From: an uncultured virus (IMG/VR IMGVR_UViG_3300009432_000017) | Taxonomy: Duplodnaviria; Heunggongvirae; Uroviricota; Caudoviricetes; Schitoviridae | Length of the DNA stretch: 20,000 nucleotides | Strand: one strand, 5' to 3' | Virus record (IMG/VR): IMGVR_UViG_3300009432_000017 | Shown here: positions 981 to 16,998 of the stretch, one piece after another | Layout: the number at the start of each line of letters is the position of its first letter | Numbering within the stretch: position 1 is the first letter of the stretch | Notes under the pieces: model-generated | Databases searched by the model: none | What the model was told of the DNA's origin: nothing | The model's input: the letters and a program-made list of their open reading frames with translations, nothing else | Made by a program: the position numbers and the translations under genes

Positions 981-3146
981 TTATGCTGCTCGCTTGTTAT
1001 AAGCTTTGCGTACTGATTGCATAATGGTAGATAGGATCTCTTCCTCTGAGAGTTTGTCCGGTATCTTCTCGTTCAGAGCAAAGATTGCTTGCTCTGTTTG
1101 AGTCACTGTTTTGCCTGAGTCTACAAGTAGCAAACCAAACTTAATAAGTTGGTTCGACCTGTTACCTAGTCCAGTGTTATTTACAAACCAGCGTTCAAGG
1201 TTAGATAGAGATTGTTGGTCTACTAACTTATTTTTACGCTTCTCGTTTTTACTGGTCTTAGGGATGAACTCAAGAGGGTTAAACAGTATGCCATCATTCT
1301 CTACTAGTGTGCTCGACAGACTTAACCACTTGCGGCTACGCTGTCCCGTACCATCATCTACTGCAAATGGTAACCAGTCATAGATAGCCTGCATGAACTC
1401 TTTGTAGTCAGGGCCATCTAGTTTGAGGATGTATTGCATAGGCATGATAATGCGGTACCTATCTTCACCATCTAGCCCATGGCGCTTAGTAGTGTAGAAG
1501 AATGATTTGTAATCCTTCAACAACTCCTGTGCAGTTTGCATAGGCACATCACCATCCACATCGATAACCAGTAAACTAAAGCCAGGTTTACATTTGTCTT
1601 CACATCTGTGGTTATCTAATAAGTGGTGGGTAACCCAGTGCATATCAGGCATTTGAGTAAGCTTACCTACGTTATCCCAGCTAATGTTCTCGCTGAGGTA
1701 GTTGTAAGCCACATGGTTTGAATAAGATACGTTTAGGCTTTCCAAGTCAGTTTCTTTCAGGCTTTCACCTTTAAGGAACTCAATACCATCATTATAGATT
1801 TTCTTAATGATGATGTTGTTTTGGTAACCATAGGCTATGGCCATAGTAAGCATCTCTGCTTTTTGCTGTAGATTACCTTTATAGAAAGGTAAGTCCTCTA
1901 CCAGCTCAACCTGAGTTACTTGCCTTGGTATATCACCAAGATACTTGGCTAACTTAACGTAAGGTCTATCACGGGTGATTAACTTAGCAAAATCTTTACC
2001 AGAGTCCTCAACAACTGCTATGGCGTTGTACAAGTGGTCTTCAGTGACGATAGGGCTGTTATCAATGAAAGCATATGTAGCTGCAAGCTTAAGTGCTTTA
2101 AACCAACGGTGCTCCATTTCAATGCGCTTAACAACATCAAACTCAGACATCTCTGCTGCACGGTCTTGGCAGTACATGGTGTACTCAATACGCAGCATCT
2201 CCTCATCTTTGTTAAGGTTAATTTGCTTCTTGTAGTTAATTGGATCAGCCAGGTCTAATAGATGCTCTGCCAACTCTTCAATGAACTGAAAGGATTGCTG
2301 TGAAGCATTACGCTTCATAATATCCTCAGCAGTTAAATCAAGTGAACGGTGTACGTCTTTAGTAAATGCAAAAATACATCTACGAGCGTAGCCTTTTTCT
2401 AACATGGCATTAAATTCATCTTCTTTCTTAGAACCATCTAGCAATGAGCTAGGAGTACCAAACATAATCAGGTTACATGGCGTTTGGCCATTTATCTCAG
2501 ATAGTCTGGTATTCTCTTTGGTATTTTTAGTAAGAGATTCTTTAACTTTACCTTTGTCGTACAACTCAAGATATTTAGAGAAAGCTTCACTGTTACCAGT
2601 AAGGTTGTCTCCAATCTCATCTATCTCAAAGTTAAGTGAGCCAGCATCAGCTAGTAGAAGTTTATGTCTGAATTGCTTCAGTGCGGGTGCAGTGGCATTA
2701 TCAAATGAACTTAACCATTGTCCTGACGCTTTGAACTCAGTACACAAGGCCTGAAACTCTGCATCTGGATCTGTATTGTTCTTGGCTGCTCTTTCCACGG
2801 ATAACTTCGCTAAATGCAGCTCAGTGGCATAGGGGAGCAGCTCGTCTTTGAATCGCTCTGTATATAGAGCACAAACTTCCTCTTCTAAGAAGTTCATAGC
2901 TTTTGTCTTTCCGGCGCCTGATGGTGCCAACGCAACTGCATACATATTAATAGGTAAAAGCTTATTGGTGTGCGTTCTCACACTGGCTCTCATCTGAGCT
3001 GCAATCTTACCAAAGAAGTAAGATACCAACATTCTGAAGAACACTGGGCTGTCATTCTCACAGTGTCCTGATAAGTGCTGTGCTAATTTCTCAGCAACAG
3101 GGTGGTACTTTATTTTTGCTGGGTCAAATACGGTTAGTTGTCTCAC
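981..3146 (-). CDS. DNA primase (N4 gp43-like: N-terminal P-loop/helicase-like domain, C-terminal primase and PriCT-like domain)
   Basis: 721 aa; Walker A APSGAGKT, EIDE; C-terminal VIDVDG and YTTKRH primase-like motifs; GNRSNQL PriCT-like tail; N4-like synteny. Confidence 0.85.
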   Translation of the reverse strand: MRQLTVFDPAKIKYHPVAEKLAQHLSGHCENDSPVFFRMLVSYFFGKIAAQMRASVRTHTNKLLPINMYAVALAPSGAGKTKAMNFLEEEVCALYTERFKDELLPYATELHLAKLSVERAAKNNTDPDAEFQALCTEFKASGQWLSSFDNATAPALKQFRHKLLLADAGSLNFEIDEIGDNLTGNSEAFSKYLELYDKGKVKESLTKNTKENTRLSEINGQTPCNLIMFGTPSSLLDGSKKEDEFNAMLEKGYARRCIFAFTKDVHRSLDLTAEDIMKRNASQQSFQFIEELAEHLLDLADPINYKKQINLNKDEEMLRIEYTMYCQDRAAEMSEFDVVKRIEMEHRWFKALKLAATYAFIDNSPIVTEDHLYNAIAVVEDSGKDFAKLITRDRPYVKLAKYLGDIPRQVTQVELVEDLPFYKGNLQQKAEMLTMAIAYGYQNNIIIKKIYNDGIEFLKGESLKETDLESLNVSYSNHVAYNYLSENISWDNVGKLTQMPDMHWVTHHLLDNHRCEDKCKPGFSLLVIDVDGDVPMQTAQELLKDYKSFFYTTKRHGLDGEDRYRIIMPMQYILKLDGPDYKEFMQAIYDWLPFAVDDGTGQRSRKWLSLSSTLVENDGILFNPLEFIPKTSKNEKRKNKLVDQQSLSNLERWFVNNTGLGNRSNQLIKFGLLLVDSGKTVTQTEQAIFALNEKIPDKLSEEEILSTIMQSVRKAYNKRAA

Positions 3147-3147
3147 G

Positions 3148-4125
3148 TTAGCCTCTTAGTATAAGTTCACCACTAGCGATTAACCTGTCCTTTTGTTTAC
3201 AGACAGGAAATGCATCGCAGTATTTACATGCGGTTACGTCACCACCTTTTTTAACCACAACACCGCCTTTAAGTGAGGCTTCTAAATCAGCAGCCATTTG
3301 GGTGTCAAAGTTCTTAGTGGAACGTATCATTTTTTCTGGATTCTTGTAGTACTTCCAGACATCGGCTTTACGCCACAGATCTTTGTCTGAACACTCAGGA
3401 ATATCTGCTTCATCAGTATCGATATACTTTTTAATATCAGCTATTTTTCCTCTAATAAAAGATTCGGTAGCTGCTACAGTTTTAAGGGGTAGACGGTACT
3501 CAAGGGTGCTAGCATTAGGATACTTGGGTTCTTTGGTACGAGTAGCCTGCCAGTCTTTAAATATAAACTGTATCGCCATCTCGTCCCGAGTAATGATGTC
3601 AGGGTTAAGCCAACGATAAATACTCCCTTGCATGATGTATTTGTCATCATTGGTTTTATTAATATAGGTGTAGACTGATGTGTTTTTTAAATCTTCTACG
3701 CGTCCTTCACCTACAAAGTCAAACTTACCTGAGATAATAAAGCCATCTATTTCTTTCTCTGAGCGTAGCTCTAGATAGACTGGTATTGTGTCCTCAGTTA
3801 AGTCTTCAGGTGCTGGGTTTACTTTAACCTTGTCTATGACCCTATCAGGGATCCCTAAGTTACTTAGGCCTTGCTTGTAGTTATTTACCCAAGCATTCTC
3901 TAATCCATCGTGCACTGCTGTACCTGTTCTAGACGGTATGAGCGCAGCTACGTCTGGGACGTTAACGCTTTTGTCTACTCTTTTAGTGAGAACAAGCTGA
4001 CGTATTGGCTTAAGTAATGATGTAGCTGATATGTGGTTTTCACGGTTATCGTGGTCGTAGGTGTCATGAGCTAACCATACTGCTACAGACAGCGGTATGT
4101 TGCTATTATTGGTATAGGCAGGCAT
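3148..4125 (-). CDS. PD-(D/E)XK nuclease (N4 gp42-like exonuclease)
   Basis: ISATSLL, GTAVH, ISGKFD...EDLK nuclease motifs and C-terminal CKYCDAFPVC. Likely start is ATG 4125 (MPAYTNN); the track start at 4161 lies inside a hairpin. Confidence 0.75.
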   Translation of the reverse strand: MPAYTNNSNIPLSVAVWLAHDTYDHDNRENHISATSLLKPIRQLVLTKRVDKSVNVPDVAALIPSRTGTAVHDGLENAWVNNYKQGLSNLGIPDRVIDKVKVNPAPEDLTEDTIPVYLELRSEKEIDGFIISGKFDFVGEGRVEDLKNTSVYTYINKTNDDKYIMQGSIYRWLNPDIITRDEMAIQFIFKDWQATRTKEPKYPNASTLEYRLPLKTVAATESFIRGKIADIKKYIDTDEADIPECSDKDLWRKADVWKYYKNPEKMIRSTKNFDTQMAADLEASLKGGVVVKKGGDVTACKYCDAFPVCKQKDRLIASGELILRG

Positions 4126-4199
4126 ATATAGTTCTCTGTACATTGAAATCATTAAACCCAACGGACGTTGGGCTTATAAGTGGGTTTACGGGTAGGAGT

Positions 4200-4637
4200 T
4201 TACTTACTTAGTTCTTTCCACAATTCCTTGGCTTCATCTAAGTTGATACATTTTATTAGTGAAGGGTTAATCATAAAATATTTGTTATCAGGTACTAATT
4301 GGTATTTGCGTTGGTAACGCTTAATGACAGGTACAATAATCTTTGCATCTTTGAGTTGCTTAATGTACCTATAAAAAATTTGGTATGAAGAAGAAGATGT
4401 ATCTCTAATCCTATCTAAAATAGGGTAAGAGCAAATACCTACTTCTGATGTGTAATTATTCTTCAGCTCAATAAATAATACTTGAGCTGCAGGTGTAACT
4501 TTTACTAAGACATCGAGTAAGTCTTGTTTGTTGTATCCGTTGTTTAACGGCACAGTTAATTTAAAAGGTGGGGCAGGCGGTACTATCTTATCTAATGGTT
4601 TGAATAGAGTTTTAAACTTTTCATTAGGTATCAACAT
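4200..4637 (-). CDS. RepL-like winged-helix DNA-binding / replication-maintenance protein
   Basis: Helix 'YQIFYRYIKQLKDAKII' followed by a wing ending 'YFMINPSL', resembling the Y-M-(I/V)-N-P signature of RepL-family wHTH proteins; RBS GGAG upstream. Confidence 0.5.
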   Translation of the reverse strand: MLIPNEKFKTLFKPLDKIVPPAPPFKLTVPLNNGYNKQDLLDVLVKVTPAAQVLFIELKNNYTSEVGICSYPILDRIRDTSSSSYQIFYRYIKQLKDAKIIVPVIKRYQRKYQLVPDNKYFMINPSLIKCINLDEAKELWKELSK

Positions 4638-4771
4638 TATTAGTTACATCTCCAGAACGTTATAAATTACTTTAGCTATAACTATTGATCTTTACTGCTT
4701 TTTGCTTTACCGTAAAGACCTTCCCGACATATGCCCAGACCTACACCCCCCATATACTCTTATCAACTAAT

Positions 4772-4932
4772 ACTATATAAGTAAGTGCAAGTAAGCATAC
4801 TACGTATACTTACTTGCACAATGCGAGCGCAGCGGAAGCATTGTGCTTATTAAGTAATAACTATATAAGTAATAAAAGGGTAAACGTTTACGTAAGTAAA
4901 CCTAGTTAATTAAGCTTAACTAAATTTAATTA
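4772..4932. repeat. AT-rich cluster of inverted and direct repeats (putative origin or regulatory region)
   Basis: IR GTGCAAGTAAG 4785-4795 / CTTACTTGCAC 4809-4819; overlapping IR GCACAATGC 4816-4824 / GCATTGTGC 4838-4846; direct repeat ACTATATAAGTAA at 4772-4784 and 4860-4872; palindromes GTAAACGTTTAC (4880-4891) and TTAAGCTTAA (4910-4919). The repeats are certain, the function is inferred. Confidence 0.6.
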
Positions 4933-4933
4933 A

Positions 4934-4952
4934 TGGTACATATGTTGGTACA
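4934..4952 (+). repeat. Distal pair of integrase arm-type repeats
   Basis: TGGTACA-TA-TGTTGGTACA, same motif and 12-bp spacing as the pairs at 5451 and 5670. Confidence 0.6.
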
Positions 4953-5035
4953 TGATACCCAATTAGATTAATAATTCTACTAAAATCAGTCTAGTAAACT
5001 AACTTTAATAAGTCTGTCTGAGGAATCGAATTAGT

Positions 5036-5266
5036 TTAACTAGTTAAAACTCTTTCCTCAATCTCAATCATTTTATCTATAAAACGTTTAGCTTCTTCTC
5101 TGGTTTTAGAGTTAGGCAATTGCTCACCGGTAACTCTATGGGTAGATCTAAAAAAATCTATGTGTTCTGGTTTAGGGATTTTTTTAACTACGGCACGATG
5201 CTTATTAATATCAAAGTCTGAACCAGGAATGTACTGAGGAATTATGTCGTACTTTTTATATCTCAT
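5036..5266 (-). CDS. Hypothetical protein (76 aa)
   Basis: ATG-started ORF on the main coding strand with plausible composition; no recognisable motif. Confidence 0.55.
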   Translation of the reverse strand: MRYKKYDIIPQYIPGSDFDINKHRAVVKKIPKPEHIDFFRSTHRVTGEQLPNSKTREEAKRFIDKMIEIEERVLTS

Positions 5267-5450
5267 AAGTACTTATCTAATTTTTTCATGGCTATCAATG
5301 TACGGATTGTAAGTAGGGTAAAAACGGACATTTTTTTTCCTAATTGGTTAAATGATCTGCAGTCAGTCACTATATTGCAAAAAGATCTTGCACAGTGAAT
5401 GTCGATGTATATAATGCTGCCCACATCAAGAGGTGAGCAGGAATATCTCT

Positions 5451-5761
5451 TGTTGGTACATATGATGGTATCAGACTTAGTTAGAAAACATAAAGTCCAA
5501 TTAAAACATATGTTTAAGTAAGGTTTGTGCTGGCGGGTTCCGCCTCCAATCATTTATACGTGTAGTACCTTTAAAGTAGTTAAACCATTGTTTTACATAA
5601 TAAATCTACCATTTGAGTAGATTTTTTTATGTCTGGAATTCGTACGCATTCGCCTAAATCCGCAAAATGTGTTGGTATTTATGTTGGTACATTTCAGAAT
5701 TGTGGCGCATAGTGGTAAATGTACCAACAAACCTATAATTAAATGTACCAACAAAAGTACA
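5451..5761. other. Putative attP region: arm-type repeats, candidate core, IHF-like site and hairpin
   Basis: TGTTGGTACA-type repeats at 5451, 5463, 5670, 5682 (direct) and AAATGTACCAACAAA at 5717-5731 and 5741-5755 (inverted); IHF-like TAAACCATTGTTT 5581-5593 (1 mismatch to YAANNNNTTGATW); hairpin 5602-5624; lies immediately upstream of a P4-type integrase. Confidence 0.7.
5602..5628 (+). terminator. Terminator-like hairpin inside the att region
   Basis: AAATCTAC (5602-5609) / GTAGATTT (5617-5624) followed by a T-run. Confidence 0.45.
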
Positions 5762-5775
5762 TAAGGAATTGACCG

Positions 5776-7044
5776 ATGCCCTTAACTAACTTGGCTTTGG
5801 CTAACGCCACGCCAAGAGATAAAGATTATAAGCTGTCTGATGGGAAAGGACTGTATTTACTGGTTAAGAAGAATGGTAGTAAATACTGGAGATGGTCATA
5901 TCGACATGATGGTAAGCAACGGACTATGGCCTTGGGTGTTTATCCTGAAGTGGGTGCTAAGACAGTTCGTGAACGTCATACTGAATTAAGAGTAATTTTA
6001 GCTACTGGCTCAGATCCTCAGGAGCACTCTAAACAAGTAAAGTTAGATAAAGTCAAACAAAATGAAAAAGGTGTCATGTTCCATGATGTCTTAGACACTT
6101 GGTTTGAAGACTGGAAAACTGAGTACCACGGTAAGACTATTGTGCGTAACAGTGGGATCATAGATAACTGGATCAAACCATTCACCATAGACCTCCAAGC
6201 CAAGGATATGAACGGTACTATTGTCATTGGCTTGATACGTAGGTTAGAAGCCCTTGATAAGCGTCCTACAGCTCATAAGACTTACACTATTCTCAAGCAG
6301 ATGTTTGCTTGGTGTATTGCAGAGCCCACCATACCTATTGACCGTAATTGGGCCATGGACATTGGTGAACTGAGAAAGCCATTATTAGAGAGTCACTACG
6401 CAGCTATGGTGACACCTAAAGAGATAGGTGGCCTGTTGCACTCGATAGCAACAAGTAGCTCATTCTGGCTTACTAAGCTCGCTATGCGGTTATCATTACA
6501 TTGGTTTATCAGACCAGGAGAACTCCGTAATCTGAAGTGGAGTGATGTTAACTGGGACATGGAGTGTGTTCAGATTGATGCCGAAGATATGAAAAAGACT
6601 AAAACGGTTCAAGAGCACTGGGTACCTTTAACTAAACAAACTAAAGAAATGCTGTTATTCATCAAACACAACGGCTACGCCTCTGTGTTTGTGTTTCCTT
6701 CTGTTAGGACCCTTTGTAAACCAATAAGTGAAAATACAGTTAATACTGCATTAAAAAGTATGGGCTTCAAAGGTAAGCAAACTGCACACGGCCTCAGAGC
6801 CACAGCTAGGACACTATTAGAAGAAGAATTAGGTGAGAATGCTTTATATGTAGAGCATCAGCTAGCGCACGTAGTGCGTGACGCTAATGGTAGAGCTTAC
6901 AACCGTACTACTATGCTAGATGAGCGCAGAGAGATGCTACAACGTTGGTCTAACTACCTAGATGAGTTGGAGTATAAAGCTACTTACGGTATAGTTATCC
7001 AATCCAAGTATGAAACTGCATTAAATAAAAAGGAAGTCGAATGA
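5776..7044 (+). CDS. int: P4-family (IntA-like) tyrosine integrase
   Basis: N-terminal arm-binding domain (YKLSDGKGLYLLVKKNGSKYWRWSYR...MALGVYPEV); intact catalytic set R (FIRPGELR), HGLR, QLAH, Y (RAYNRT); RBS AAGGA. Confidence 0.95.
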   Translation: MPLTNLALANATPRDKDYKLSDGKGLYLLVKKNGSKYWRWSYRHDGKQRTMALGVYPEVGAKTVRERHTELRVILATGSDPQEHSKQVKLDKVKQNEKGVMFHDVLDTWFEDWKTEYHGKTIVRNSGIIDNWIKPFTIDLQAKDMNGTIVIGLIRRLEALDKRPTAHKTYTILKQMFAWCIAEPTIPIDRNWAMDIGELRKPLLESHYAAMVTPKEIGGLLHSIATSSSFWLTKLAMRLSLHWFIRPGELRNLKWSDVNWDMECVQIDAEDMKKTKTVQEHWVPLTKQTKEMLLFIKHNGYASVFVFPSVRTLCKPISENTVNTALKSMGFKGKQTAHGLRATARTLLEEELGENALYVEHQLAHVVRDANGRAYNRTTMLDERREMLQRWSNYLDELEYKATYGIVIQSKYETALNKKEVE

Positions 7045-7153
7045 AAAATTATTATTAAGCTTAGTTGTTATCGGTGCCACTGCTTGCAGCAGCGCACCTA
7101 AACGTGAAGTAATTCCTGGTACCGTTGTACAGGTTGTCACTCGTTGTAATTAA
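7041..7153 (+). pseudogene. Small lipoprotein gene with a 1-nt frameshift in an A-run (possible superinfection-exclusion lipoprotein)
   Basis: ATGA overlap with the int stop and RBS AAGGAAG. As written, ATG AAA AAT TAT TAT TAA stops after 5 codons. Adding one A to the A5 run (7044-7048) gives MKKLLLSLVVIGATACSSAPKREVIPGTVVQVVTRCN*, a signal peptide II with lipobox-like ATA|C. Confidence 0.65.
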
Positions 7154-7383
7154 TCCCTGGATTGAATACGAGCGTCGACCCATTTCTGTACTTCACTGTC
7201 TACCCATCCTACGGCTTTACCAGTTATAGGAACTGGCTTAGGGAATGAACCTTCCCTAATTAGTTTATGCAGTGTTGTGTGACCAATGCCGGTTACATGA
7301 AGTACTTCTGGTTTGCGTAGTAAGCGAGTGAGAGGAATTACCTTACCCTCTAAATTATTCTGTGATTCGATTGATTCAAACAT
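7150..7383 (-). CDS. alpA: AlpA-family regulator / recombination directionality factor (excisionase)
   Basis: RLLRKPEVLHVTGIGHTTLHKLIREGSFPKPVPITGKAVGWVDSEVQKWV is a typical AlpA pattern; convergent with the integrase; RBS GAGG. Confidence 0.9.
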   Translation of the reverse strand: MFESIESQNNLEGKVIPLTRLLRKPEVLHVTGIGHTTLHKLIREGSFPKPVPITGKAVGWVDSEVQKWVDARIQSRD

Positions 7384-7398
7384 TTTACGTCCTCAACG

Positions 7399-7427
7399 AA
7401 AAAAGCCACCTTATTAGGGTGGCTTTT
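7399..7427 (-). terminator. Intrinsic terminator (probably bidirectional) between thyX and alpA
   Basis: AAAAGCCACC (7401-7410) / GGTGGCTTTT (7418-7427) with T-runs on both strands. Confidence 0.75.
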
Positions 7428-7597
7428 ATTTATTAGTTAGTTTTACTGTTCAGGCATGTGTGTGGCCATTTGTAGTACATAGGTACACGATTAAACATGC
7501 TACTTTTGTATATTCTTATATAAAATTGATACGACCTGAAGGGGTCTTTAAGCACGGATGCAAGGGCTGGTATCACCGCCTATACTACGAGGAATCT

Positions 7598-8470
7598 TTA
7601 GCCTACCACAGTATGACCTGGAATAAGTTGTCTTTGTTGTACCCACTCACAGGCATTACCAGACCATACTTGTTTTGAAGCATCCACATGAGTAAATCCT
7701 AATTTAGCTGCCTTAGCTAAGGTTAGACCTTTAGAGTTAACTGCTTTGAATTGGTGCTCAAATGGTGATGCGTGAACTCGGTCACCTGAAGTAAGCATGT
7801 TTACTATTTTTTCTGCTTTTTCTAATGAGGTATCCAGTACCCTGTAACTGACCTGTGCACAACTGGATGTTGATATATAGTTCAATTCTTTTAAGGTGAA
7901 CTGGTCTTTTATAATATTAGGTATGTAAGGTAAATGCCATTCACCCCACTGTAATAATTTTGGTTTGTTAGTAAGAAGGGCTTTTGATACCAAATTACCT
8001 AACACCTGTAATTCGGGCTGAGCATCAATGTGGTTGCGTAACCATACAAAATTGTTCCACTCACTACCTGAGATAACAATCTTCATTAAAGCCCATGGTT
8101 CGAGGATCCGGTTAATGTATTGTTTGTGTAAGCCAAGCTTTTCTAAGCCCCAATGGAACATACAAGCTGTTCTAGCTGCACTTTTCCATAACCAACCTGC
8201 TACTTTACCTCTACGGCTGCTGAGGGTAGCTTTGGCAGACATACCAGCCTGGTTCTTAGACCATTCAACTGGCATTGCTGGGTTATCCCAAACTTGCTTA
8301 CGTACTTTCTTAGCAGGGATAGCACGACTACTTGCTGCATTCTTTGAAAGGGCTCTGTGAGTCATTACTTCACTGTGGATAAATCGTGGGTATTCCCACT
8401 CAAATGAAGCCACTGTTTTACCATTTGGGTTAACAGAATAGGCTAATAAACTTACTGTAATAAATGACAT
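7598..8470 (-). CDS. thyX: Flavin-dependent thymidylate synthase (ThyX/Thy1)
   Basis: PRFIHSEVMTHRALSKNAASSRAIP, HKQYINRILEPW, AQPELQ and HASPFEHQ motifs typical of phage ThyX-like proteins. Confidence 0.85.
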   Translation of the reverse strand: MSFITVSLLAYSVNPNGKTVASFEWEYPRFIHSEVMTHRALSKNAASSRAIPAKKVRKQVWDNPAMPVEWSKNQAGMSAKATLSSRRGKVAGWLWKSAARTACMFHWGLEKLGLHKQYINRILEPWALMKIVISGSEWNNFVWLRNHIDAQPELQVLGNLVSKALLTNKPKLLQWGEWHLPYIPNIIKDQFTLKELNYISTSSCAQVSYRVLDTSLEKAEKIVNMLTSGDRVHASPFEHQFKAVNSKGLTLAKAAKLGFTHVDASKQVWSGNACEWVQQRQLIPGHTVVG

Positions 8471-8979
8471 TAATTGTTTTCTCTTAATTCATTGAAAGTG
8501 CCATTAACTAGATCTTGGTATTGGTCGACAGGTACGAGTACCCATTTAGGTAACCGATTATGGTTTACCACCACTACACTGTCTTCTGTGATGTGGCCAT
8601 CTCCTACAGCCTGTCTTAACTCAGTAAGAGACATATTAGGTGCACGGATACCCAATCTAGGTAAGGAACGTATGTTGTATAGACGCATTTTTGTATAGAT
8701 AACTTGAAGGCTGTAACCAACTACTTCAGCTATTTCTTCTACGCTGTAACCGTTGATCCATAGTGCAGACATATCTGCTTGGAGTTTGGCTTTCCTAATT
8801 TCACAACCACTTACTAAGCCCCACCTGTTTCTTCTACACCAAATAGTGTCAGGAGTGACTTTGTAAATTTTTGCTATTTCCTGGTCTGAGGTACCATCAT
8901 TAACTAGAGTAGTGATGTGTTCTCTATCTGAATCGAAAGGTGCTTTCCTAAGCTCGATATTTGGGGAAGTTCTTGCCAT
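8470..8979 (-). CDS. Putative transcriptional regulator: two HTH motifs plus a C-terminal Phd/YefM-like domain
   Basis: HTH1 SDQEIAKIYKVTPDTIWCRR; HTH2 SVEEIAEVVGYSLQVIYTKM; C-terminus MSLTELRQ...VVVVNHNRLPKWVLVPVDQYQDL resembles the Phd/YefM antitoxin fold. Confidence 0.6.
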   Translation of the reverse strand: MARTSPNIELRKAPFDSDREHITTLVNDGTSDQEIAKIYKVTPDTIWCRRNRWGLVSGCEIRKAKLQADMSALWINGYSVEEIAEVVGYSLQVIYTKMRLYNIRSLPRLGIRAPNMSLTELRQAVGDGHITEDSVVVVNHNRLPKWVLVPVDQYQDLVNGTFNELRENN

Positions 8980-9083
8980 GTAATTGATCTACTTGAAAGG
9001 AACTTTTACTTATTAGTTGCAAACGCCCTAACAAGTAAGAGTCTTGTTTAGAAGGGATCAGTGTGTCTGCTAGAACAGGAAGG

Positions 9084-9299
9084 TTATTCTTGTATTTTAT
9101 TCTTATGGTAGTGGGCGTGATCATTGGCACAATCAACATCACAAAATAGTTTCTGAACATCCATTGGCTCATTACACCAGTAGCAATCACCTCTGGGTTT
9201 TAAACCCTGGGTAGTATTCCTAATGTTTTCTATGGCTTGGGCGTTCATGCGCTCTTGTTCTGCACAAGCTGCATCGATTAGGTCAGGGTAGCTATTCAC
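9084..9299 (-). CDS. TraR/DksA-like C4 zinc-finger protein
   Basis: Likely GTG start at 9299 after GGAGAGAGG; N-terminal PDLIDAA (DxxDxA), a helical segment, then CYWC...FCDVDC. Confidence 0.65.
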   Translation of the reverse strand: MNSYPDLIDAACAEQERMNAQAIENIRNTTQGLKPRGDCYWCNEPMDVQKLFCDVDCANDHAHYHKNKIQE

Positions 9300-9588
9300 C
9301 GCCTCTCTCCTTATATGCTGCCTCGGCGCCAAGAGCAAAGTAAGCTGAACCACCTTCATAGTTGTCAAGTTTGAAACCTCCTTGCTGGGTACGCACAGCT
9401 TTAAGTATTACCATAAATAACCAGCCTTGTTCTTCGCTAAGCTCAGAGCCTGTTATAGTGTTAAATGCTTTAACAGTATTGGCCATAGAGCGTTCACCCT
9501 TACCTTTACTGTCGTAGGTGGTGCCTTTATCTACTAAATGGCTTTGTGCGGTTTGTAGTACTTCTGCCGCAACTACAGGATTGCCCAT
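9292..9588 (-). CDS. Conserved phage protein (DUF6378-like)
   Basis: GERSM..TV.AFN.ITG..LSEEQGWLFM..LK.VR...DNY...AY pattern recalled from a widespread phage family. Confidence 0.65.
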   Translation of the reverse strand: MGNPVVAAEVLQTAQSHLVDKGTTYDSKGKGERSMANTVKAFNTITGSELSEEQGWLFMVILKAVRTQQGGFKLDNYEGGSAYFALGAEAAYKERGGE

Positions 9589-9761
9589 TCTATTACCCCT
9601 TTTATTGGTTTGTTATCTAGTGATCTGTAGTCAGGATCTGACGAGTAAGAAGTAGCGTAGTTAGGCCTTATGGCTACATACTCTCCGTCAACTGTCCTAA
9701 CAAGTAGCTTTATAAGTGGTGTCGGGAAAGTACTGGCAGGATGCCATTTACGTTTATTCAT
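9573..9761 (-). CDS. Hypothetical protein (62 aa)
   Basis: ATGA-coupled to the upstream gene; W...P...LL.R...W pattern common in small phage proteins. Confidence 0.65.
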   Translation of the reverse strand: MNKRKWHPASTFPTPLIKLLVRTVDGEYVAIRPNYATSYSSDPDYRSLDNKPIKGVIEWAIL

Positions 9762-10234
9762 GCTTCCACTATCTCGTTTGAACTGAGTTTTTTAAAATCA
9801 AATGCACCAAGTGATTCTAATATTTCAAAAGCCTCAGATTCTTTCCAATCCTTAAGATAAGGCGTAGCAAGCCAACCATAACTAAGTAAGTGTCTGTGGT
9901 TGAATTTCTTGCCTAAAGCCAAGTGATGGGTATTAAGTGCATCAATCATTTCTTCCTGTCGTACAGGGTGATTGACGGCAATTTCTTCTGACTTCATGTA
10001 CCGTTTGTTATTATCATCGATACCGAATACGGCTATGAACACAGACCACTGGTGTCGTAAGGTAGATAAAAGCCTTACTTTGTTTTCTGTGATAGGTACT
10101 TTGGTTACGCTACGTAAGTCGATGAGTTGGCACCCATCTTTACCAGCAATACATCCAATGGCTGAATTTTTTAATGCCACCTTAGCTACTAAGTCTAGTT
10201 GCTTTAGTGGGTTATACCTCTTGTTCTTACGCAT
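9758..10234 (-). CDS. Hypothetical protein (158 aa)
   Basis: RBS GAGG; basic N-terminus MRKNKRYNPLK; coupled to the next gene. Confidence 0.75.
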   Translation of the reverse strand: MRKNKRYNPLKQLDLVAKVALKNSAIGCIAGKDGCQLIDLRSVTKVPITENKVRLLSTLRHQWSVFIAVFGIDDNNKRYMKSEEIAVNHPVRQEEMIDALNTHHLALGKKFNHRHLLSYGWLATPYLKDWKESEAFEILESLGAFDFKKLSSNEIVEA

Positions 10235-10252
10235 AATAACGTAATACCTCTT

Positions 10253-10281
10253 AAAAGAAAAAGCCCTATGAAGTTAGGGCT
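10253..10281 (-). terminator. Intrinsic terminator overlapping the DNA polymerase stop
   Basis: AGCCCTA (10262-10268) / TAGGGCT (10275-10281) followed on the minus strand by TTTTCTTTT. Confidence 0.65.
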
Positions 10282-12833
10282 AATTTTATTGTTGCTCTTA
10301 TGGACTCTTGATCTGCACCATTAGGGATAACTATCTCTTCTTTCCAGCTTGGGTAGAACAAAGATAACTCACCTCCTAAACCAACTGTATCGTGCTGTAT
10401 TTCAGGCAACTCTTGCCATTCCATACATTGCACTAAGTTGATGTTTAACCATTCCACTACCTCAATATCATCTCTTACTATGAAGTACTGGGCATCATGT
10501 ATGTGAGCGACAGGTAGAATGTCATACCGGTAATCGGATTCCAGTGTTCTTTCTTGTAGGTCTATACCTGCACGGTTGTTGAGTAACCCATATGACTGAC
10601 CAAGTGCATTACCGCCAGTTCTTCCTTCAGCCTGGGCTTCATATGGAGTCTTGCGGCTATTCATTGCGGTTTGGTGGAGCAGAGGTGTTCTAACTCGTAG
10701 CCCAAAGGCCACTGTTAGGTAACCTACTTTAGCTGCGTCGTCTAACTTAGACTTTACCCACTCATCTGAGTGAACATACAAGGTGTGATAGTTAAGTTCT
10801 ATGGATAAGGATTCTTCCTTAGTCAATCCAACGTCATTCATTAACCCATGGTAAGTACCACCGTAGGTTAGTAAGAATGTAGGTTCTTTGGAGTCCTGCC
10901 TAAAATCTGGGTATAGAACTTTGATGCTGTTTATACTCACCACAGTATTTACTATGTCAGGCATCTGAGCACCGTAGTAACTATGTGCCCTTAAGCAATG
11001 TCCATCGAAACCATCTGTGTAGACTTTAAGTTTCATTGGATCTTGTGTGGTCAGTGCAGAGATTCTGTCTTCTAAAGAAGCAAAATCAGCTCCCATGAAT
11101 ACAAAACCAGGTGGAGCTACAAAACATGCCTTAATAATCTTGGCGTACTTTGAGCCAGTACTAGGAATGTTTTGTAAGTTGGGCCCAGATGAACTAAGTC
11201 GACCAGAGACTGTACCACCTAAGTTGAAATTACCGTGAAGGTAGTGGCAACCATCAGCCTTTAATACAGAGTTTTCAAGGGCAACAATAAAGGTGTTTAG
11301 TATCTTAGCTGCAGCAGAAAAGTCTTGTAGGGCACACATAAGTTCCTTAATAGCAGGATCATCAGTGTGGTTTACCAGCTTTTTGAGTGTCTTAGCTCCC
11401 ACGGCAGGTGCCTTGGCTTTAGTCTTATCAATAATAGGTAAGTCCAAGTAGTCATACAGTAGCTGTTGCATCTGGAGGTTAGAGTTAGGGTTAAAGACAT
11501 AGTCGTCAAAATGAGATAAGGGATGTACTTTTTTTACCAACTTAGCATTGGCTTTATTCATCTCTTGCTCACGCAGTATGTAACCGAACTGGTCAATTAT
11601 ATCACTGGACATAATTAGGTCAGTAGCAGCTTTAATAGCTGTTTCTAGTATAACCCTTGCTTCAGCAACCCTAGTCATATCGACAGGCATACCAGTAAGT
11701 TCCATCTGCAGTATAACTTTAACGGATGGCTTCATAATAGTGCTGTAAATGTCTAACTGCTTACCAGCTACCATTTCAGGATAGTGCTTATCAAATACAA
11801 ACCAGGTTGATAAACAATCTACCAGGTTGTACTTCATTAAGACTGCAGGATCCATTTTAGTAATATCAGTGATGCCATCTTCAGCGTAGTTACCCGCGAA
11901 CTCATGAGCTGCTGCTTTTAGACCAAGGACATTTCCGGCACATGAATTTGTAGCCAGATACCTAATAAGTTTAGTGTCATGAAAATTACGAGTAAGTAAC
12001 TCAATACCGTTCTGCTTACCTTTTTCATCTAGTAGGTGCTCCATAAATAATGTGTTAATTAGGATCTTCATATCGAAATTGGCATTGTGATAAAGCAGGG
12101 TGCCTATGTACGTGTAGAAGAAGTTCTTAAGTAATTCCCTTACTTTGGTATTGGATTCATTTTTATAGCTGTCACACCATATAACGATGCCGTTGTGTTT
12201 GTCCCAAGCAAAACCAATAGTGACAACCCCTGTTTCCCAGAAATTGAGGCTAAGTGTTTCTACATCTACAGAGAGTGCAGGGTGTTGCTTGATATCACTT
12301 AGATAACCATAAACATCTGCAGGTGTGTGGATGTACTTAGCTGACTTAATAATGTCTGCGCCAAGATCTTTGTGAGTACCTCTTACAAATTTAGATAACG
12401 TCTTAAGACCCATATCTAATTTGTCTTGTAAATCTGGGTTGTAGTAGAGCCCTTGGTAGTTAGGAACTAATACAACGTTCATGAACTCAAAGCCTTTTAT
12501 GGCACAAGGCAGGACGTATCCATAATGTACTTCTGCTTTGCGTTGATTAGTGATTGTCTTAAAGTAGTTGGCGTCTGCTACAAGAAGTATTTTGGTACCT
12601 AGATCTTTGAGGATAGGTAACAAGTCTTGTAAGTAAGCTTTCTGTAACGGAACTGCAGGCTTTTTAGATGGGCCATACACTAGGTCGAAAGCACATATAT
12701 TATTTGGCTTAATCCCTAGTGGTTTAAGTGGGTTTATATAAGCATTCTCTAAAGGTGCTTTGACTAACGAAGAAGGCTTAATAAGTAAGGCTACATCGTA
12801 AGTATCACTCTTATCGAAGACGATATGCTGCAT
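10266..12833 (-). CDS. polA: Family A DNA polymerase with 3'-5' exonuclease (N4 gp39-like)
   Basis: ExoI SVDVET, ExoII HNANFD, ExoIII YNLVD; TVSGRLSSSGPNLQNIP; motif A DFASLEDR, motif B RQDSKEPTFLLTYG, motif C HIHDA. Confidence 0.95.
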   Translation of the reverse strand: MQHIVFDKSDTYDVALLIKPSSLVKAPLENAYINPLKPLGIKPNNICAFDLVYGPSKKPAVPLQKAYLQDLLPILKDLGTKILLVADANYFKTITNQRKAEVHYGYVLPCAIKGFEFMNVVLVPNYQGLYYNPDLQDKLDMGLKTLSKFVRGTHKDLGADIIKSAKYIHTPADVYGYLSDIKQHPALSVDVETLSLNFWETGVVTIGFAWDKHNGIVIWCDSYKNESNTKVRELLKNFFYTYIGTLLYHNANFDMKILINTLFMEHLLDEKGKQNGIELLTRNFHDTKLIRYLATNSCAGNVLGLKAAAHEFAGNYAEDGITDITKMDPAVLMKYNLVDCLSTWFVFDKHYPEMVAGKQLDIYSTIMKPSVKVILQMELTGMPVDMTRVAEARVILETAIKAATDLIMSSDIIDQFGYILREQEMNKANAKLVKKVHPLSHFDDYVFNPNSNLQMQQLLYDYLDLPIIDKTKAKAPAVGAKTLKKLVNHTDDPAIKELMCALQDFSAAAKILNTFIVALENSVLKADGCHYLHGNFNLGGTVSGRLSSSGPNLQNIPSTGSKYAKIIKACFVAPPGFVFMGADFASLEDRISALTTQDPMKLKVYTDGFDGHCLRAHSYYGAQMPDIVNTVVSINSIKVLYPDFRQDSKEPTFLLTYGGTYHGLMNDVGLTKEESLSIELNYHTLYVHSDEWVKSKLDDAAKVGYLTVAFGLRVRTPLLHQTAMNSRKTPYEAQAEGRTGGNALGQSYGLLNNRAGIDLQERTLESDYRYDILPVAHIHDAQYFIVRDDIEVVEWLNINLVQCMEWQELPEIQHDTVGLGGELSLFYPSWKEEIVIPNGADQESIRATIKLALTS

Positions 12834-12837
12834 ATGA

Positions 12838-13356
12838 TTATCCTTTTATGGATTTGATAACCACCTGTACGCTAATAAGTTTAAGAGTTTCTTTATGGGT
12901 TTCTTTAAATTTATATATTTTCTCTTTTGAAAGAGAAGGGTAGCTAGAATCAGGTAGAGGTAATGTAGGGTGAATGCACTCAGGGAGTAATTCGCGTAGG
13001 TCATTGGTGTTGCCCATAAGATTAAAGGCAGAGACTAGTATGCTATCAACTCTGTGCTGTCTGTCAAGATGGACATCCCAGCTAGCAATGTGGTCTTTAA
13101 AGTCATCAACTAGTGATGAGTGTAGAGGCTTACATTGAAATGGCTGAGAATAAACTAACTGATGTTGGTAGTGCTTTAAACCTAACCTGAATGCCGCAAT
13201 GGATCTAGTTAGATTTCTATGCTTGAGTGCAAAGTCGTCTACCACTTTCTGCTTACTATTATTGAAAGAGATGAGTAGAAAGTCCTTTATGGTATTGAAA
13301 CAATTTACCTTAAAGTTACGCGGGTACTCACGTTTACTGTAGCTGGATTCCTCCAT
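12838..13356 (-). CDS. Hypothetical protein (position of N4 gp38)
   Basis: 172 aa ORF between helicase and polymerase; RBS AGGAG. Confidence 0.7.
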   Translation of the reverse strand: MEESSYSKREYPRNFKVNCFNTIKDFLLISFNNSKQKVVDDFALKHRNLTRSIAAFRLGLKHYQHQLVYSQPFQCKPLHSSLVDDFKDHIASWDVHLDRQHRVDSILVSAFNLMGNTNDLRELLPECIHPTLPLPDSSYPSLSKEKIYKFKETHKETLKLISVQVVIKSIKG

Positions 13357-14626
13357 TAGTTGCTCCTAGATATTTAGGGGGTAGGTCACCATACATGATG
13401 ACTTGATCTGAAGGTCTTGAAGAGGCCACATATAATAATCTGGCTGTATCGCTAGGCATGTTACATCTACCTATGTCAGATAAGTCTATGAAGACTTGGC
13501 CATAGGTAGAGCCCTGTGATTTGTGAACAGTTGAGGCATATGGCTGACGTAGATCACCCCATGTGTCCTTTATGTTGAAATACTTTTTCCAGTTTTTCTC
13601 TTTGGCGTAGTGCTTCATGAGAGCTTTGGCATCTTTTTGAGAGGTGGGAACAAAAATAACCCCTATATTTTCTAAGTAAACTTCATAGCCATCTATACCG
13701 AACATGGTAGTAGGTATAGAACTAACCACCTTAACAGGTGAATCAGTACTGGCCTCAATTTTACCATAGATCATTATTGGACTATTAGTTATCAGAGTCT
13801 CTCCCGAAGGGAAGGGCTCTGTGATACCGCGTAAATCAGCAATATAGTTGTTGTAGTCATTCACTCTTGTATTAGACCAAGCCAATACTTTAGCTGACTT
13901 ATCTGCTACGTAATCTTTGCTTAGAAATGCTGCATCTATTAAAGACTGAAACTCAGTTCCAGATACATGAGTAACCATGCTACTGGTACCAGTGATTATG
14001 TCTTTGAACATTGAGCTTGTAACTGATTCACGGAACTGAGCTGATAACTCTTGTATTGGGCCTTGATTACGCATAATGGTAGTCAAATGTACTGTGGGAA
14101 TTTTCCCATCAAACACAGGAGACTTAAAGGTACCCGGTTGTAGTAGCTGACATGGATCACCCATGAATACTATTTTACAAGATGTACTGGTCATTTCTCT
14201 TACTTTAAGTAAGAGCTCTGCATTCATGAAACTGGCTTCATCTATAAAGATAAGAGTATCTGATTTTACATATGCACCTTTGGCAAGCTTAAGGAAAGTC
14301 TCACCTGTGTCGTAATTATTTCTTAAAACTAAGCCAAGGTAACTATGTATAGTACTTGGCTCAGTATTAAGTGAGTGTGCTAATACATGCGCTGCTTTAC
14401 GTGTTGTAGCAGTAATCTGTACGTTCTGAGGGACAGTTTTAGTTTTACCTAGTGCTTTAGCTGCAGCTTCATACTTATCTAAGTTATCAATTAAGTATTT
14501 AACTAGAGTAGTTTTACCCGTACCAGCAAAGCCAGATATAACTAGCTCTGATTGGGCAGGGTGAAACAGAAATTCTACAAATGAGTCAACGGCAGCTAGT
14601 TGACAGGAATTTAAAGTGATAGTCAC
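13334..14626 (-). CDS. SF1 (Dda/RecD-like) DNA helicase (N4 gp37-like)
   Basis: GFAGTGKT, IDEASF, GDPCQL, YASTVHKSQGSTY, LLYVASSR. Likely start is GTG 14626 after AAGGAG. Confidence 0.9.
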   Translation of the reverse strand: MTITLNSCQLAAVDSFVEFLFHPAQSELVISGFAGTGKTTLVKYLIDNLDKYEAAAKALGKTKTVPQNVQITATTRKAAHVLAHSLNTEPSTIHSYLGLVLRNNYDTGETFLKLAKGAYVKSDTLIFIDEASFMNAELLLKVREMTSTSCKIVFMGDPCQLLQPGTFKSPVFDGKIPTVHLTTIMRNQGPIQELSAQFRESVTSSMFKDIITGTSSMVTHVSGTEFQSLIDAAFLSKDYVADKSAKVLAWSNTRVNDYNNYIADLRGITEPFPSGETLITNSPIMIYGKIEASTDSPVKVVSSIPTTMFGIDGYEVYLENIGVIFVPTSQKDAKALMKHYAKEKNWKKYFNIKDTWGDLRQPYASTVHKSQGSTYGQVFIDLSDIGRCNMPSDTARLLYVASSRPSDQVIMYGDLPPKYLGATNGGIQLQ

Positions 14627-14740
14627 TGTGTTGCTCCTTGGTTGTTTATTAAAAGAATAATTGATTGACGTATTGCGTAGGACAGGCACGTCATTCCTGT
14701 ATTATGTATAACTATATTCATCTACTGATTGGTGTTCTAC

Positions 14741-14846: not shown

Positions 14847-15959
14847 CTAATAAGTTATGACCTTACCTTTCTTAACCTTAAAGCTTGAGTGACCGTGGAT
14901 GACCCAAAATATAGGTATACCTCTAGGTATCTCTTCATCAGCCGTATCAAAGTAACCATCTGTAAAGATGATTAGTATTTTTGGCTTGTGGGTTTTAGCC
15001 CATTCATACACTGGTTGGATTAACGTGCCCCCTCCACCTATGAATTTTAGCTTTAGTAAATCAGCACGGTTCTGTATGAAAGCTTCCATCGTTATCTCAG
15101 TATCAAAACCCACTACGTGAGTTTTGCTAGGCTTCACCATATTGTGTATGGAATGAATCTCTGATATGAATATGTCAGCTTCTGTTTGTGTTATTGAGCC
15201 AGATAGGTCAACTGCTACTGCAATCTCTCCTATGGCTGCTGAGTAGCGTGTAGGCATGTAATGGTCAGGCATGTACCTACGATTAGGTCTACTGAAGGTG
15301 TGGTCATCTTGTGCGAAGCTATTCAGACAATTGGCCAGTATTCTGTGCCAAGGTAACTTGGGTGACACTAGCTTATCCAAGAATATTTCTACTTCACCTG
15401 GGATAGTACCAGCCTGGTTTTCCAACTTAGCCTGGATAGATGCTTTTATTATTGTATCCTTTACTGCTTCAGCTATTGCTTTAGCTTGTTCGGGATCCGT
15501 AGGCATCTCTTCAAAGTCTTCTTCGAAGCCCTGTGGTAGTTCACTCTCTGGCTTCGGTACAAGCAAGTCATAGACTTCATAACTACTCATGGCTTTGTAC
15601 TGCTTATCGAGTAGGCCGCCTTTTATGAACTCAAAGCCACTGTCTACTAACATCTGATTAATCACATAGTCAGTAGCGAAGTTCCATATCCTGAAGATAC
15701 GCCCTTCTACTCTTGCCATGTGTTGGAATGCTACGTGGTATGACTCATGAGCCAGTAAGAATATTCTTTGTCCTTTCGTTAAGTCTATAAAGAACTTAGG
15801 GTTTACCTTTAGGTAAACACCGTTAGTACATGCAGTAGGTACAGTGCCATCCCACTCGAACCGCAAACTGAACAGTATAGTAGAAATGAATACACTGTCT
15901 GGTCTGCAGATCAGGTTAATCTTAGCCGAGTCCAATGCCTTATCATGTTCAGTTTGCAT
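14847..15959 (-). CDS. HEXXH metallopeptidase-like plus VWA domain protein (DUF2201-like; N4 gp25-like)
   Basis: PTACTNG, HESYH, WNFATDYVIN; MIDAS VAVDLSGSI, GGGGT, IFTDG. Confidence 0.85.
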   Translation of the reverse strand: MQTEHDKALDSAKINLICRPDSVFISTILFSLRFEWDGTVPTACTNGVYLKVNPKFFIDLTKGQRIFLLAHESYHVAFQHMARVEGRIFRIWNFATDYVINQMLVDSGFEFIKGGLLDKQYKAMSSYEVYDLLVPKPESELPQGFEEDFEEMPTDPEQAKAIAEAVKDTIIKASIQAKLENQAGTIPGEVEIFLDKLVSPKLPWHRILANCLNSFAQDDHTFSRPNRRYMPDHYMPTRYSAAIGEIAVAVDLSGSITQTEADIFISEIHSIHNMVKPSKTHVVGFDTEITMEAFIQNRADLLKLKFIGGGGTLIQPVYEWAKTHKPKILIIFTDGYFDTADEEIPRGIPIFWVIHGHSSFKVKKGKVITY

Positions 15960-15981: not shown

Positions 15982-16998
15982 TTAAAGGTGTGTGGCTACT
16001 TCAGTAATCTTCTTAATGAATAGCTCATTGGTTTCTACGAAAGGACAACGTCTACTCATTTCCCTGATTGTAATAATCTGGAACTCTTTAGGCAGTCTGT
16101 CTACGTAGGTAAGTAACCTACTGACATTGTCTTTCTCAGTGTTATCTGCAATTACGGCCGACATTGCGTATAGCGTACTTGGTTCATCTGGTACCTGTGC
16201 ACTAGTAGGGCTCTCGATGATCTTTCTGATGTCAGGTAGTTGCTTAAATATCTTAGTAAATTGGTAGAACTCTCTGGCTACGCCTTCACTTAGTGCACCT
16301 GATAGTAGATTTACAAATTCAGGCTTTATCTCATCCCATAGGGAGATAAGCTTACTAGTAAACTCCCATGTTCTTGGGCAGGCGAAGGTCATATCAGAGT
16401 GGTCTGGATCAAACATTTGTAAACACGAGGGTCTGAAGTTGATGTAGGAAGTTATCCGATAGTCAATATCGTTAGCCTGTGCCCACTCAATCCAGTCTGC
16501 TGTGCTTGGGATTAATTTTATGTGGATCAATCTTGATTGGTTTGCTGTAGACATTTGGTCTACTAACGCACCATCAGTATCTAAGTTACCTGCACACACT
16601 ATGGCTACGTTCTTGTGTAGTTTGTGCTGACCTACCATTTTATCCAGTGTCAACTTATAAGCTGCTTTCTGTACTGCAATTGAGGCTGAGTTAAACTCGT
16701 CCAAGAAAAGTAACCAACCACCTTTATCTTTAGGAAGTGGGTCACCTTCTAGTGGAAACATATCCATAGGGCAGTAATGTGCTTTACCGTTATCTCCCAT
16801 AGTAGGGAATCCGTTTAAGTCTGTTGGGTCACACTGGCTTAACCTGATATCGATTAACTGTAGGTTAAACTCATCTGCTATCTGAGAAGTGATATCTGAT
16901 TTACCAATCCCTGGGCTGCCATGTAGCATAGGCACAAGTCGGGCTTTCAGTACTTCTCTTATATAACTGGTAGCCACACTCGGCTTTACTGCTTGCAT
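15982..16998 (-). CDS. MoxR-like AAA+ ATPase (N4 gp24-like)
   Basis: Walker A GSPGIGKS, DIRLSQCDPTDL, Walker B LFLDE, AGN, CPRTWE; adjacent to its VWA partner. Confidence 0.9.
   Translation of the reverse strand: MQAVKPSVATSYIREVLKARLVPMLHGSPGIGKSDITSQIADEFNLQLIDIRLSQCDPTDLNGFPTMGDNGKAHYCPMDMFPLEGDPLPKDKGGWLLFLDEFNSASIAVQKAAYKLTLDKMVGQHKLHKNVAIVCAGNLDTDGALVDQMSTANQSRLIHIKLIPSTADWIEWAQANDIDYRITSYINFRPSCLQMFDPDHSDMTFACPRTWEFTSKLISLWDEIKPEFVNLLSGALSEGVAREFYQFTKIFKQLPDIRKIIESPTSAQVPDEPSTLYAMSAVIADNTEKDNVSRLLTYVDRLPKEFQIITIREMSRRCPFVETNELFIKKITEVATHL

Follow-up and report, generated by a model that had tools for sequence, protein, structure and literature searches.

The question raised by the DNA analyzed here is whether a phage of the N4 type can carry its own means of integrating into a host chromosome. 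N4-like phages are textbook lytic, and they are favored for phage therapy partly for that reason. The window, which is the whole 20-kb stretch under study, belongs to the contig of an uncultured N4-like virus (IMG/VR record IMGVR_UViG_3300009432_000017), and positions given without a record name are window positions. Among its replication genes lies a cassette with a P4-type tyrosine integrase gene (int), a convergent alpA gene and an attP region. We consider it likely that this cassette is the phage's own integration and excision module, and that it occupies a lysogeny slot conserved upstream of the orf145-exonuclease-primase genes in a marine N4-like clade. The parts of the module, the tRNA-Cys identity, the conservation of the arrangement and the integrated relatives were all computed here.

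The integrase (Int; 5776-7044, plus strand, 422 amino acids (aa)) matched PF13356 (Arm-DNA-bind_3, E = 4e-23), PF22022, PF00589 (E = 3.6e-15) and phrog_1 (E = 1.3e-56), and consists of a P4-type arm-binding, a core-binding and a catalytic domain. Its N-terminus matched the solved arm-binding domains of CP4-like integrases (PDB 3ju0, E = 1e-21). Five residues, R246, H338, R341, H365 and Y375, were invariant in all of the 12 sequences, and we take these to be the R..HxxR..H..Y motif residues of tyrosine recombinases. The arm-binding domain and the catalytic domain with its motif residues identify the protein as a P4-type (DUF4102/Arm-DNA-bind_3) integrase, and it is 30.5% identical to P4 Int over 97% of the length.

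Convergent with int, the gene at 7150-7383 (minus strand) encodes a 77-aa directionality factor of the AlpA/Vis type (PF05930, E = 1.6e-16). This protein is 47.4% identical to P4 ORF88/Vis, which is annotated there as excisionase and transcriptional regulator. A small winged-helix PF05930 protein encoded beside its integrase is typical of the AlpA/Vis family, and a role in excision is predicted for it by this kinship. The int/alpA pairing is kept in the metagenome contigs L036 and L037 and in the N4-like record G422, described below. Thus the intact P4-family integrase and convergent AlpA gene that the first-pass annotation had read from the sequence are borne out by the domain matches and the invariant motif residues. 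A hairpin of 12 pairs between thyX and alpA (7401-7427), with an A-run before and a T-run after the stem, was rated a strong two-way terminator; because it sits 18 nt upstream of the alpA start, alpA is shielded from the thyX transcript. The int transcript could run antisense across alpA, and this might have a regulatory meaning.

When the region upstream of int was aligned among the window, L036 and L037, whose integrases are 74% and 58% identical to that of the window, a single invariant block was found. This block is the attP core GGCGGGTTCCGCCTCCA (17 nt; 5532-5548, plus strand), which is present in a single copy in the window against 0 expected. In L037 it forms the 3′ end of a tRNA-Cys(GCA) gene that ARAGORN located at L037:50-123, and the end of that gene (L037:109-123) equals 15 nt of the window core (5534-5548), ending in CCA. 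All 17 nt (5532-5548) are identical in L036, where the left flank is not tRNA-like. Rfam called no tRNA fragment at the window core, the string being short. Directly downstream of the tRNA-Cys gene, L037 carries the 58% Int, a 183-aa open reading frame (ORF) and an AlpA protein of 50% identity; by its gene order, this tRNA-Cys-int-ORF-alpA arrangement is a predicted integrated junction.

The core is flanked by copies of an 11-mer, TGTTGGTACAT, of which the five exact ones all fall within 4943-5753; three are on the plus strand (starting at 4943, 5451 and 5682) and two on the minus strand (starting at 5719 and 5743). With one mismatch allowed, a sixth copy is added at 18489. At this tolerance, 0.65 matches would be expected by chance, and 0 of 200 shuffles reached six. 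The left (P) arm copy (5451-5461, plus strand) stands 71 nt left of the core and is conserved in L071, the locus of the relative G005, and the right (P′) arm holds those at 5682-5692 (plus), 5719-5729 (minus) and 5743-5753 (minus). A distal pair of arm-type motifs (4934-4953) is placed in an AT-rich intergenic region (4640-5035, GC 0.33). The 7-nt center of the 11-mer was also found twice in L036 and three times in L037, in both cases upstream of int and, in L037, never on the tRNA side, and this distribution is what should be expected of arm-type Int sites. A tRNA 3′-end core beside int together with arm repeats characterizes an attP, the tRNA-Cys identity being taken from contigs of relatives and not from the phage's own host. 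An att-like region had at first been placed at about 5530-5560, and the core, the tRNA-Cys 3′ end and the arm 11-mers confirm it.

Two further elements of this region may bear on its regulation. The inverted arm sites at 5719-5729 and 5743-5753 straddle an exact TATAAT (5733-5738) upstream of int, which was found by eye and was not listed by the promoter scan, and this layout suggests that Int probably represses its own gene. Autoregulation is known for P4 int. Just right of the core, a hairpin of 7 pairs followed by a T-run (5603-5630, plus strand) is conserved in the window, L036 and L037, with one pair kept through a two-sided change in these three sequences only; it weakly hints at a terminator that would probably serve the tRNA gene in place of its own once integration has occurred.

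The genes around the cassette were those of an N4-like phage. The long ORFs of the window lie nearly all on the minus strand and together form an N4-type replication module according to Pfam and PHROG matches, in the same order as in Vibrio phage D497. The PHROG matches and the comparison with D497 thus place the window in Schitoviridae, and the N4-like order of the flanks, noticed before any database search, is corroborated by them. The gene of the giant virion RNA polymerase (vRNAP), which the window is too short to reach, was detected in 10 of the 10 related records tested and in 0 of 14 control genomes. In G005 (primase 92% and exonuclease 87% identical) it lies about 3 kb beyond the SSB gene (phrog_2206, E = 2.7e-266). 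The check for N4 hallmark genes suggested in the first-pass annotation was thus positive for G005 and for all 10 relatives tested, the corresponding region of this contig lying outside the 20-kb window.

The right border of the cassette is a thyX-like gene (7598-8470, minus strand; phrog_85, E = 1.1e-66). To the left lies orf145 (4200-4637, minus strand), which has homologues of 29-39% identity directly upstream of the exonuclease gene in L068, L069, L070 and L071. It is therefore a backbone gene outside the cassette, and the cassette extends from about 4640 to 7430. Of the original delimitation, 4200-7430, the right end stands and the left end does not. Likewise, the cassette had been described as lying between PolA and the nuclease, and PolA proved not to be adjacent; seven other ORFs, among them thyX and a gene for a dual helix-turn-helix (HTH) protein, intervene.

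Because assemblies break near the core, we considered whether the contig is a chimera in which a bacterial island was joined to phage DNA. L071 ends at the equivalent of window position 5513 and so misses the core by 19 nt; the first bases of L036 and L037 lie 285 and 317 nt upstream of int. However, such breaks are the expected behavior of an assembler at a core that is shared with a host tRNA. Contigs of three sequencing runs from three studies (X1, X2 and X3) were compared with the window, parts left uncovered in X2 and X3 being uninformative. One X1 contig spans 3500-7925 with 5 differences, and X2 and X3 contigs carry relatives that lead from int (93% identical as protein) via a diverged alpA to thyX, from the exonuclease gene via the left arm, and from attP via int to alpA. 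Record G001 is identical over 2523-13468 but may share the source sample. Chimeric cassette edges, a concern of the earlier reading, were therefore not found, since contigs from three studies bridge the borders, and we regard a chimera as hardly credible. We had also considered the breaks near the core as a sign of active integration, and this argument was dropped because a core shared with the host tRNA breaks the assembly graph with or without integration.

We then compared the position of the cassette with that of integrase genes in complete N4-like relatives with 60-71% primase identity: G002 (71,350 bp, with terminal repeats), G003 (73,480 bp) and G004 (75,038 bp). Each has vRNAP, a tyrosine integrase and an excisionase, and the integrase slot is that of the window, between the ligase/thyX/HTH genes and orf145-exonuclease; the thyX gene is also found in the same variable region of G002 and G003. 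The content of the slot differs. The window pairs an Arm-DNA-bind_3 (P4-type) integrase with AlpA, G003 and G004 pair an Arm-DNA-bind_2 integrase with a DUF1233 excisionase, and G002 pairs a 328-aa integrase with an Exc/HTH_17 excisionase, the integrases of G002-G004 having no meaningful similarity to that of the window. With int-xis modules of three families found in this slot within the clade, the cassette is not a one-off capture. The idea that a phage of a lytic lineage had captured an island-type module is thus upheld as to the module and not as to a single capture.

G004 is classed as a provirus, and its record runs from the int stop codon to 139 nt upstream of orf145. Recombination at an attP lying between int and orf145, laid out as in G003, would give exactly this permutation. 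A search for permuted prophages, as had been proposed, therefore yielded one for a relative and no integrated copy of the phage itself.

These comparisons also bear on the possibility that the cassette is an independent island or satellite inserted into the phage, for which the phage is only a vehicle. Islands and satellite P4 usually integrate by means of a P4-type Int with AlpA, only an int-alpA block is present on short contigs such as L036, and the left arm is 96% identical to L071 against 82% for the neighboring replication genes. On the other hand, the core is single, neither direct repeats flanking the cassette nor a tRNA gene to insert into was found in the window, and int has the same GC content as the flanks, with only the attP region being AT-rich. 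The absence of repeats of the core settles a point on which the first-pass annotation had made its reading depend. The cassette contains int, alpA and at most three small frames, and has no genes for replication, packaging, transfer or hijacking, so that neither the bounding core repeats nor the gene content of an island or satellite was seen. Moreover, the slot in relatives holds int-xis pairs of two other families, the G004 provirus spans an entire 75-kb N4-like genome, and G003 and G004 encode homologues (59-61%) of a gene beside int in L036. We therefore rejected this reading, together with that of a chimera, on the grounds of the bridging contigs, the single core, the lack of repeats and of a tRNA gene, the GC content of int and the little content of the cassette; an island remains very improbable, if slightly less so than a chimera.

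If the module belongs to the phage, Int would be expected to have diverged together with the backbone. The best homologues of Int and primase were found on contigs of equal size, with identities of 81/78% (76,234 bp), 74/76% (74,574 bp) and 78/75% (11,890 bp). Contigs of equal size were taken to be the same, in which case Int would have diverged in step with the phage backbone. Relative to L036, Int showed a rate of nonsynonymous change (dN) of 0.20, with synonymous sites saturated. A homologue of 58% identity came from Glaciecola punicea, and below 58% the identity dropped to about 40%, with matches from many bacteria. Searches with the window Int as a single query gave no locus in viral contigs. 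An alignment query gave two loci of 30-32% in viral contigs, 30 loci in genome contigs (full-length matches at most 39%, none from Alteromonadaceae) and only two close loci, both short, in metagenome contigs.

Primase homologues were found in bacterial records of Salinimonas marina (72%, on a 3.77-Mb contig), Alteromonas sp. RKMC-009 (70%, on a 4.93-Mb contig) and Alteromonas alvinellae (68%), and this points to putative prophages in Alteromonadaceae. No primase match was found among 400 genomes scored in a 401-genome sample of one class, or in the five genomes behind the collected loci.

The survey was widened with a primase-alignment search that covered 42 further N4-like records and left out 24 of 66 loci not yet searched, mostly the shortest fragments. 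An integrase was present in six of the 42 records, two of which belong to the 8 with a completeness of 90% or more, and vRNAP was present in all five that were tested of these six. In four of the six, 2-4.5 kb separate the integrase from the primase downstream of it, and in the other two about 10-11.5 kb, assuming that two records wrap round. One of the six records with an integrase, G422 (71,677 bp, 97% complete, vRNAP present, exonuclease 62%), starts inside a tRNA with anticodon GCA (Rfam RF00005, model positions 27-71, 5′ end cut, 23.8 bits, E = 0.0075), followed by a P4-type Int 39% identical to that of the window and then a convergent AlpA. At the opposite end, the record stops 756 nt upstream of an orf145 homologue. 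Whether the tRNA end is an attL or a long attP, the pairing of a P4-type Int with tRNA-Cys holds in a second N4-like lineage.

Several observations weigh against a module that serves lysogeny in this phage. No integrated copy of the phage itself was seen, and the matches in Salinimonas and Alteromonas are at protein level only, with no junctions in view. A 489-kb Glaciecola contig with a 58% Int was not among the 120 best primase matches. The provirus label of G004 is the catalogue's own, and the record has no host flank. The genes beyond alpA in L037 match no N4-like gene compared, so that the element may not be such a phage, and because G422 is cut inside the tRNA, an attL and a long attP are indistinguishable there. 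No integrase was found in G006 (exonuclease 59%; 59% complete), in which the slot is covered by 10 kb upstream of the exonuclease gene, or in three 5-kb fragments with 60-63% primase identity, which reach at most 1.6 kb upstream of the primase and fall short of the slot. Finally, no CI-like immunity repressor was recognizable by Pfam or PHROG among the window proteins. Five fragments with 42-44% exonuclease identity also had no integrase.

These observations raise the possibility that the module is intact but yields no stable lysogens, being a recent or decaying passenger or serving only transient integration or pseudolysogeny, so that the phage is lytic in practice. Besides the missing immunity repressor, the cultured N4-like relatives in the phage collection all have less than 60% primase identity, and the nearest, D497, has no integrase. 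A lipoprotein-like frame after int that has no start codon hints at some decay. Furthermore, a paper of 2023 (mSystems, PMC10654107) states in the parts consulted that lysogeny of N4-like phages has never been demonstrated by experiment. Yet the motif residues of Int, as well as the core and the arm sites, are all intact, and they are conserved in relatives with Int identity as low as 58%, the divergence of Int tracks that of the primase, and relatives occur as a provirus record and in bacterial chromosomes. We therefore judge a purely lytic life unlikely, while giving it more weight than an island or a chimera, and favor a working integration module. The earlier statement that the phage may lysogenize is thus supported by the module, the att site and the relatives, and integration by this phage was not observed.

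From the arrangement of these parts we infer the steps of a reaction, and with them lysogeny by this particular phage. After entry, the genome would circularize, and Int would bind the 11-mer arm sites through its N-terminal arm-binding domain while its core-binding and catalytic domains engage the 17-nt core. The attP would then recombine with the 3′ end of the tRNA-Cys gene of the host; the core would thereby make the tRNA 3′ end complete again, and a terminator would come from the hairpin at 5603-5630. In the resulting prophage, int would be next to the tRNA, and orf76, orf145 and the exonuclease gene would be at the far end. AlpA, as a homologue of P4 Vis, would turn the reaction towards excision, and Int would probably repress itself via the inverted arm sites around the TATAAT.

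A gene linked to this cycle may be the one for the dual-HTH protein HTH169 (8470-8979, minus strand), which matched HTH_23, HTH_38 and HTH_7. Homologues of 44-50% identity were found in G002, G003 and G004, and none in D497, in the fragments G006, G007 and G011, or in 50,697 phage records. In 4 of 4 genomes HTH169 thus goes together with an integrase, and D497 and three integrase-free fragments lack it, which is a correlation only. Its fold matches in Atlas were weak, with template-modeling (TM) scores of at most 0.40 and of about 0.3 for a Phd/YefM-like C-terminus. It is the only candidate seen for a lysogeny-linked regulator.

A broader reading, which we put forward tentatively and hold to be considerably less probable than the module itself, is that the N4-like clade on Alteromonadaceae is ancestrally temperate. 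The slot would then have swapped at least three unrelated cassettes of integrase, directionality factor and attP, each re-aimed at another tRNA, with silencing in the N4 style: a prophage might be quiet by default since its early promoters need a virion-injected polymerase, and the clade-specific dual-HTH protein might help. If this is true, the lineage would be the first tractable model for entry into and exit from lysogeny by a virus that depends on a virion-injected RNA polymerase. The locus in any case raises the question of how a phage whose early genes need an injected polymerase chooses lysogeny and reawakens, and one slot with three unrelated integration cassettes shows how such phages switch their chromosomal target. 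The claim lends itself to direct testing, since the attP core, its target in tRNA-Cys, the arm sites and the Int/AlpA pair have been located at single-base resolution.

That temperate N4-like viruses exist is a general claim already in print, since integrase-bearing genomes and proviruses were reported in the 2023 paper. According to the parts of it consulted, N4-like genomes from metagenomes and bacterial contigs encode integrases, and lysogeny was proposed on genomic grounds; it counted 54 N4-like genomes that have hallmark genes of lysogeny, 14 marine ones among them, along with 40 N4-like proviruses in integrated form, chiefly in Moraxella, and the lysogeny genes cluster in particular subfamilies (PMC10654107). 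It stresses Moraxella and Enterococcus as hosts and drew on IMG/VR, the source collection of G002-G004. In its main text the words attP, Salinimonas and Glaciecola are absent and tRNA and Alteromonas occur once each, though its tables may list the lineage. To those genomic hints, which came with neither an att site nor a mechanism, the present analysis adds the att site with its tRNA-Cys target and arm sites, the AlpA partner, and the way in which modules are swapped at one slot.

Among known systems, the int-vis-attP region of P4 resembles the cassette in the type of Int, in the kinship of AlpA with ORF88/Vis and in the position of attP upstream of int, and the P4 record annotates an "attP arm sequence repeat", as arm-type repeats are present in the window. 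The two differ in that P4 is an 11.6-kb satellite, whereas the window module is part of an N4-like virus of about 70-76 kb, and in that the window has tRNA-Cys as its target and no P4 replication or helper-exploitation genes. The target of P4 is the 3′ end of the tRNA gene leuX. The nearest cultured N4-like phages are Vibrio phage D497 and near-identical isolates (primase identity 49.6%), which share the order of the replication genes and have a 10.6-kb virion RNA polymerase gene. Unlike the window, D497 has no integrase in its complete 78,341 bp, no HTH169 homologue and only three small genes between the polymerase and exonuclease genes. Neither the whole window (megablast) nor 4100-7600 (blastn) had a DNA match to a cultured phage. 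G003 and G004 are the free and provirus forms of a sister lineage in IMG/VR, alike in slot, neighbors (ligase or thyX upstream, orf145-exonuclease downstream) and HTH169 homologue, and differing in that their Arm-DNA-bind_2 Int and DUF1233 excisionase genes are both oriented like the replication genes. On visual inspection, a short string directly after int in G003 looks like a tRNA 3′ end in reverse complement, and Rfam did not call it. The variable region of G003 between thyX and ligase also encodes an SPFH/Band-7 domain protein (L069:3575-4429, E = 1.7e-31).

The small frames of the cassette were judged one by one. The product of orf76 (5036-5266, minus strand), in the left arm, is 93% identical in L071, with a ratio of nonsynonymous to synonymous change (dN/dS) of 0.26; neither Pfam nor PHROG matched it, the Atlas clusters were all unnamed and below 0.9, and there are weak signs that it may be a gene. 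The open frame orf96 (5263-5553, minus strand) crosses the core and has no family match. Compared with L071, 7 of 168 nt differ, and its dN/dS of 0.63 equals that of the other two frames; being no lower than in other frames, and with no family, it is probably not a gene. No support as a gene was found for orf53, which overlaps the arm sites. In the left arm of L071, a 120-aa ORF of about 340 bp without a family match (L071:171-548) is inserted, which is absent from the window.

After the int stop codon, an open frame on the plus strand (7043-7151) encodes a lipoprotein-like sequence with a short signal peptide and a lipobox cysteine, beside five consecutive A residues. Relative to the ATG at 7041, the frame is shifted by one base. 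The same place in L036 and L037 holds full ORFs of 161 and 183 aa with signal peptides, and the frame in the window may be a decayed or slippage-dependent gene for lysogenic conversion or exclusion.

The AT-rich intergenic region contains two hairpins besides the distal arm motifs. The first (4785-4819), found by the repeat search, has a 16-bp stem and a 3-nt loop, and the region gave a terminator-like match on the minus strand. The second, at about 4816-4849, has a 9-bp stem whose pairing is kept in L071 by a two-sided change, as seen by eye in the alignment, and a 13-nt direct repeat at 4772 and 4860 flanks both. The hairpins at 4785-4849 are candidates for a terminator, an operator or an N4-type hairpin promoter.

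The replication backbone comprises, from the right, an ATP-dependent ligase (17359-18537), an AAA ATPase (15982-16998), a VWA/metallopeptidase protein (14847-15959), a Dda-like helicase (13334-14689) and PolA (10266-12833). These are followed by small genes with the dual-HTH gene and thyX (7598-10234) and, beyond the cassette and orf145, by the exonuclease (3148-4161, phrog_2139), the primase (981-3146, phrog_2135, E = 2.9e-282), a Sak4-type AAA ATPase (199-927) and the start of SSB (3-281). At 9084-9588, three frames overlap, namely a DksA-like zinc-finger ORF (phrog_54), a DUF6378 ORF and one of 80 aa, and the gene calls there need care. The product of orf145 is only 39% identical to that of L071:1179-1619, whereas the genes on either side are 87-93% identical; orf145 is thus hypervariable although its position is conserved, which might be expected of a gene for host interaction or anti-defense. 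In two relatives (L096:5075-6783 and L154:12181-13853), the Sak4-type ATPase gene is split between residues of about 40 and 42 by an insert of about 1 kb, which may be a homing endonuclease or an intron.

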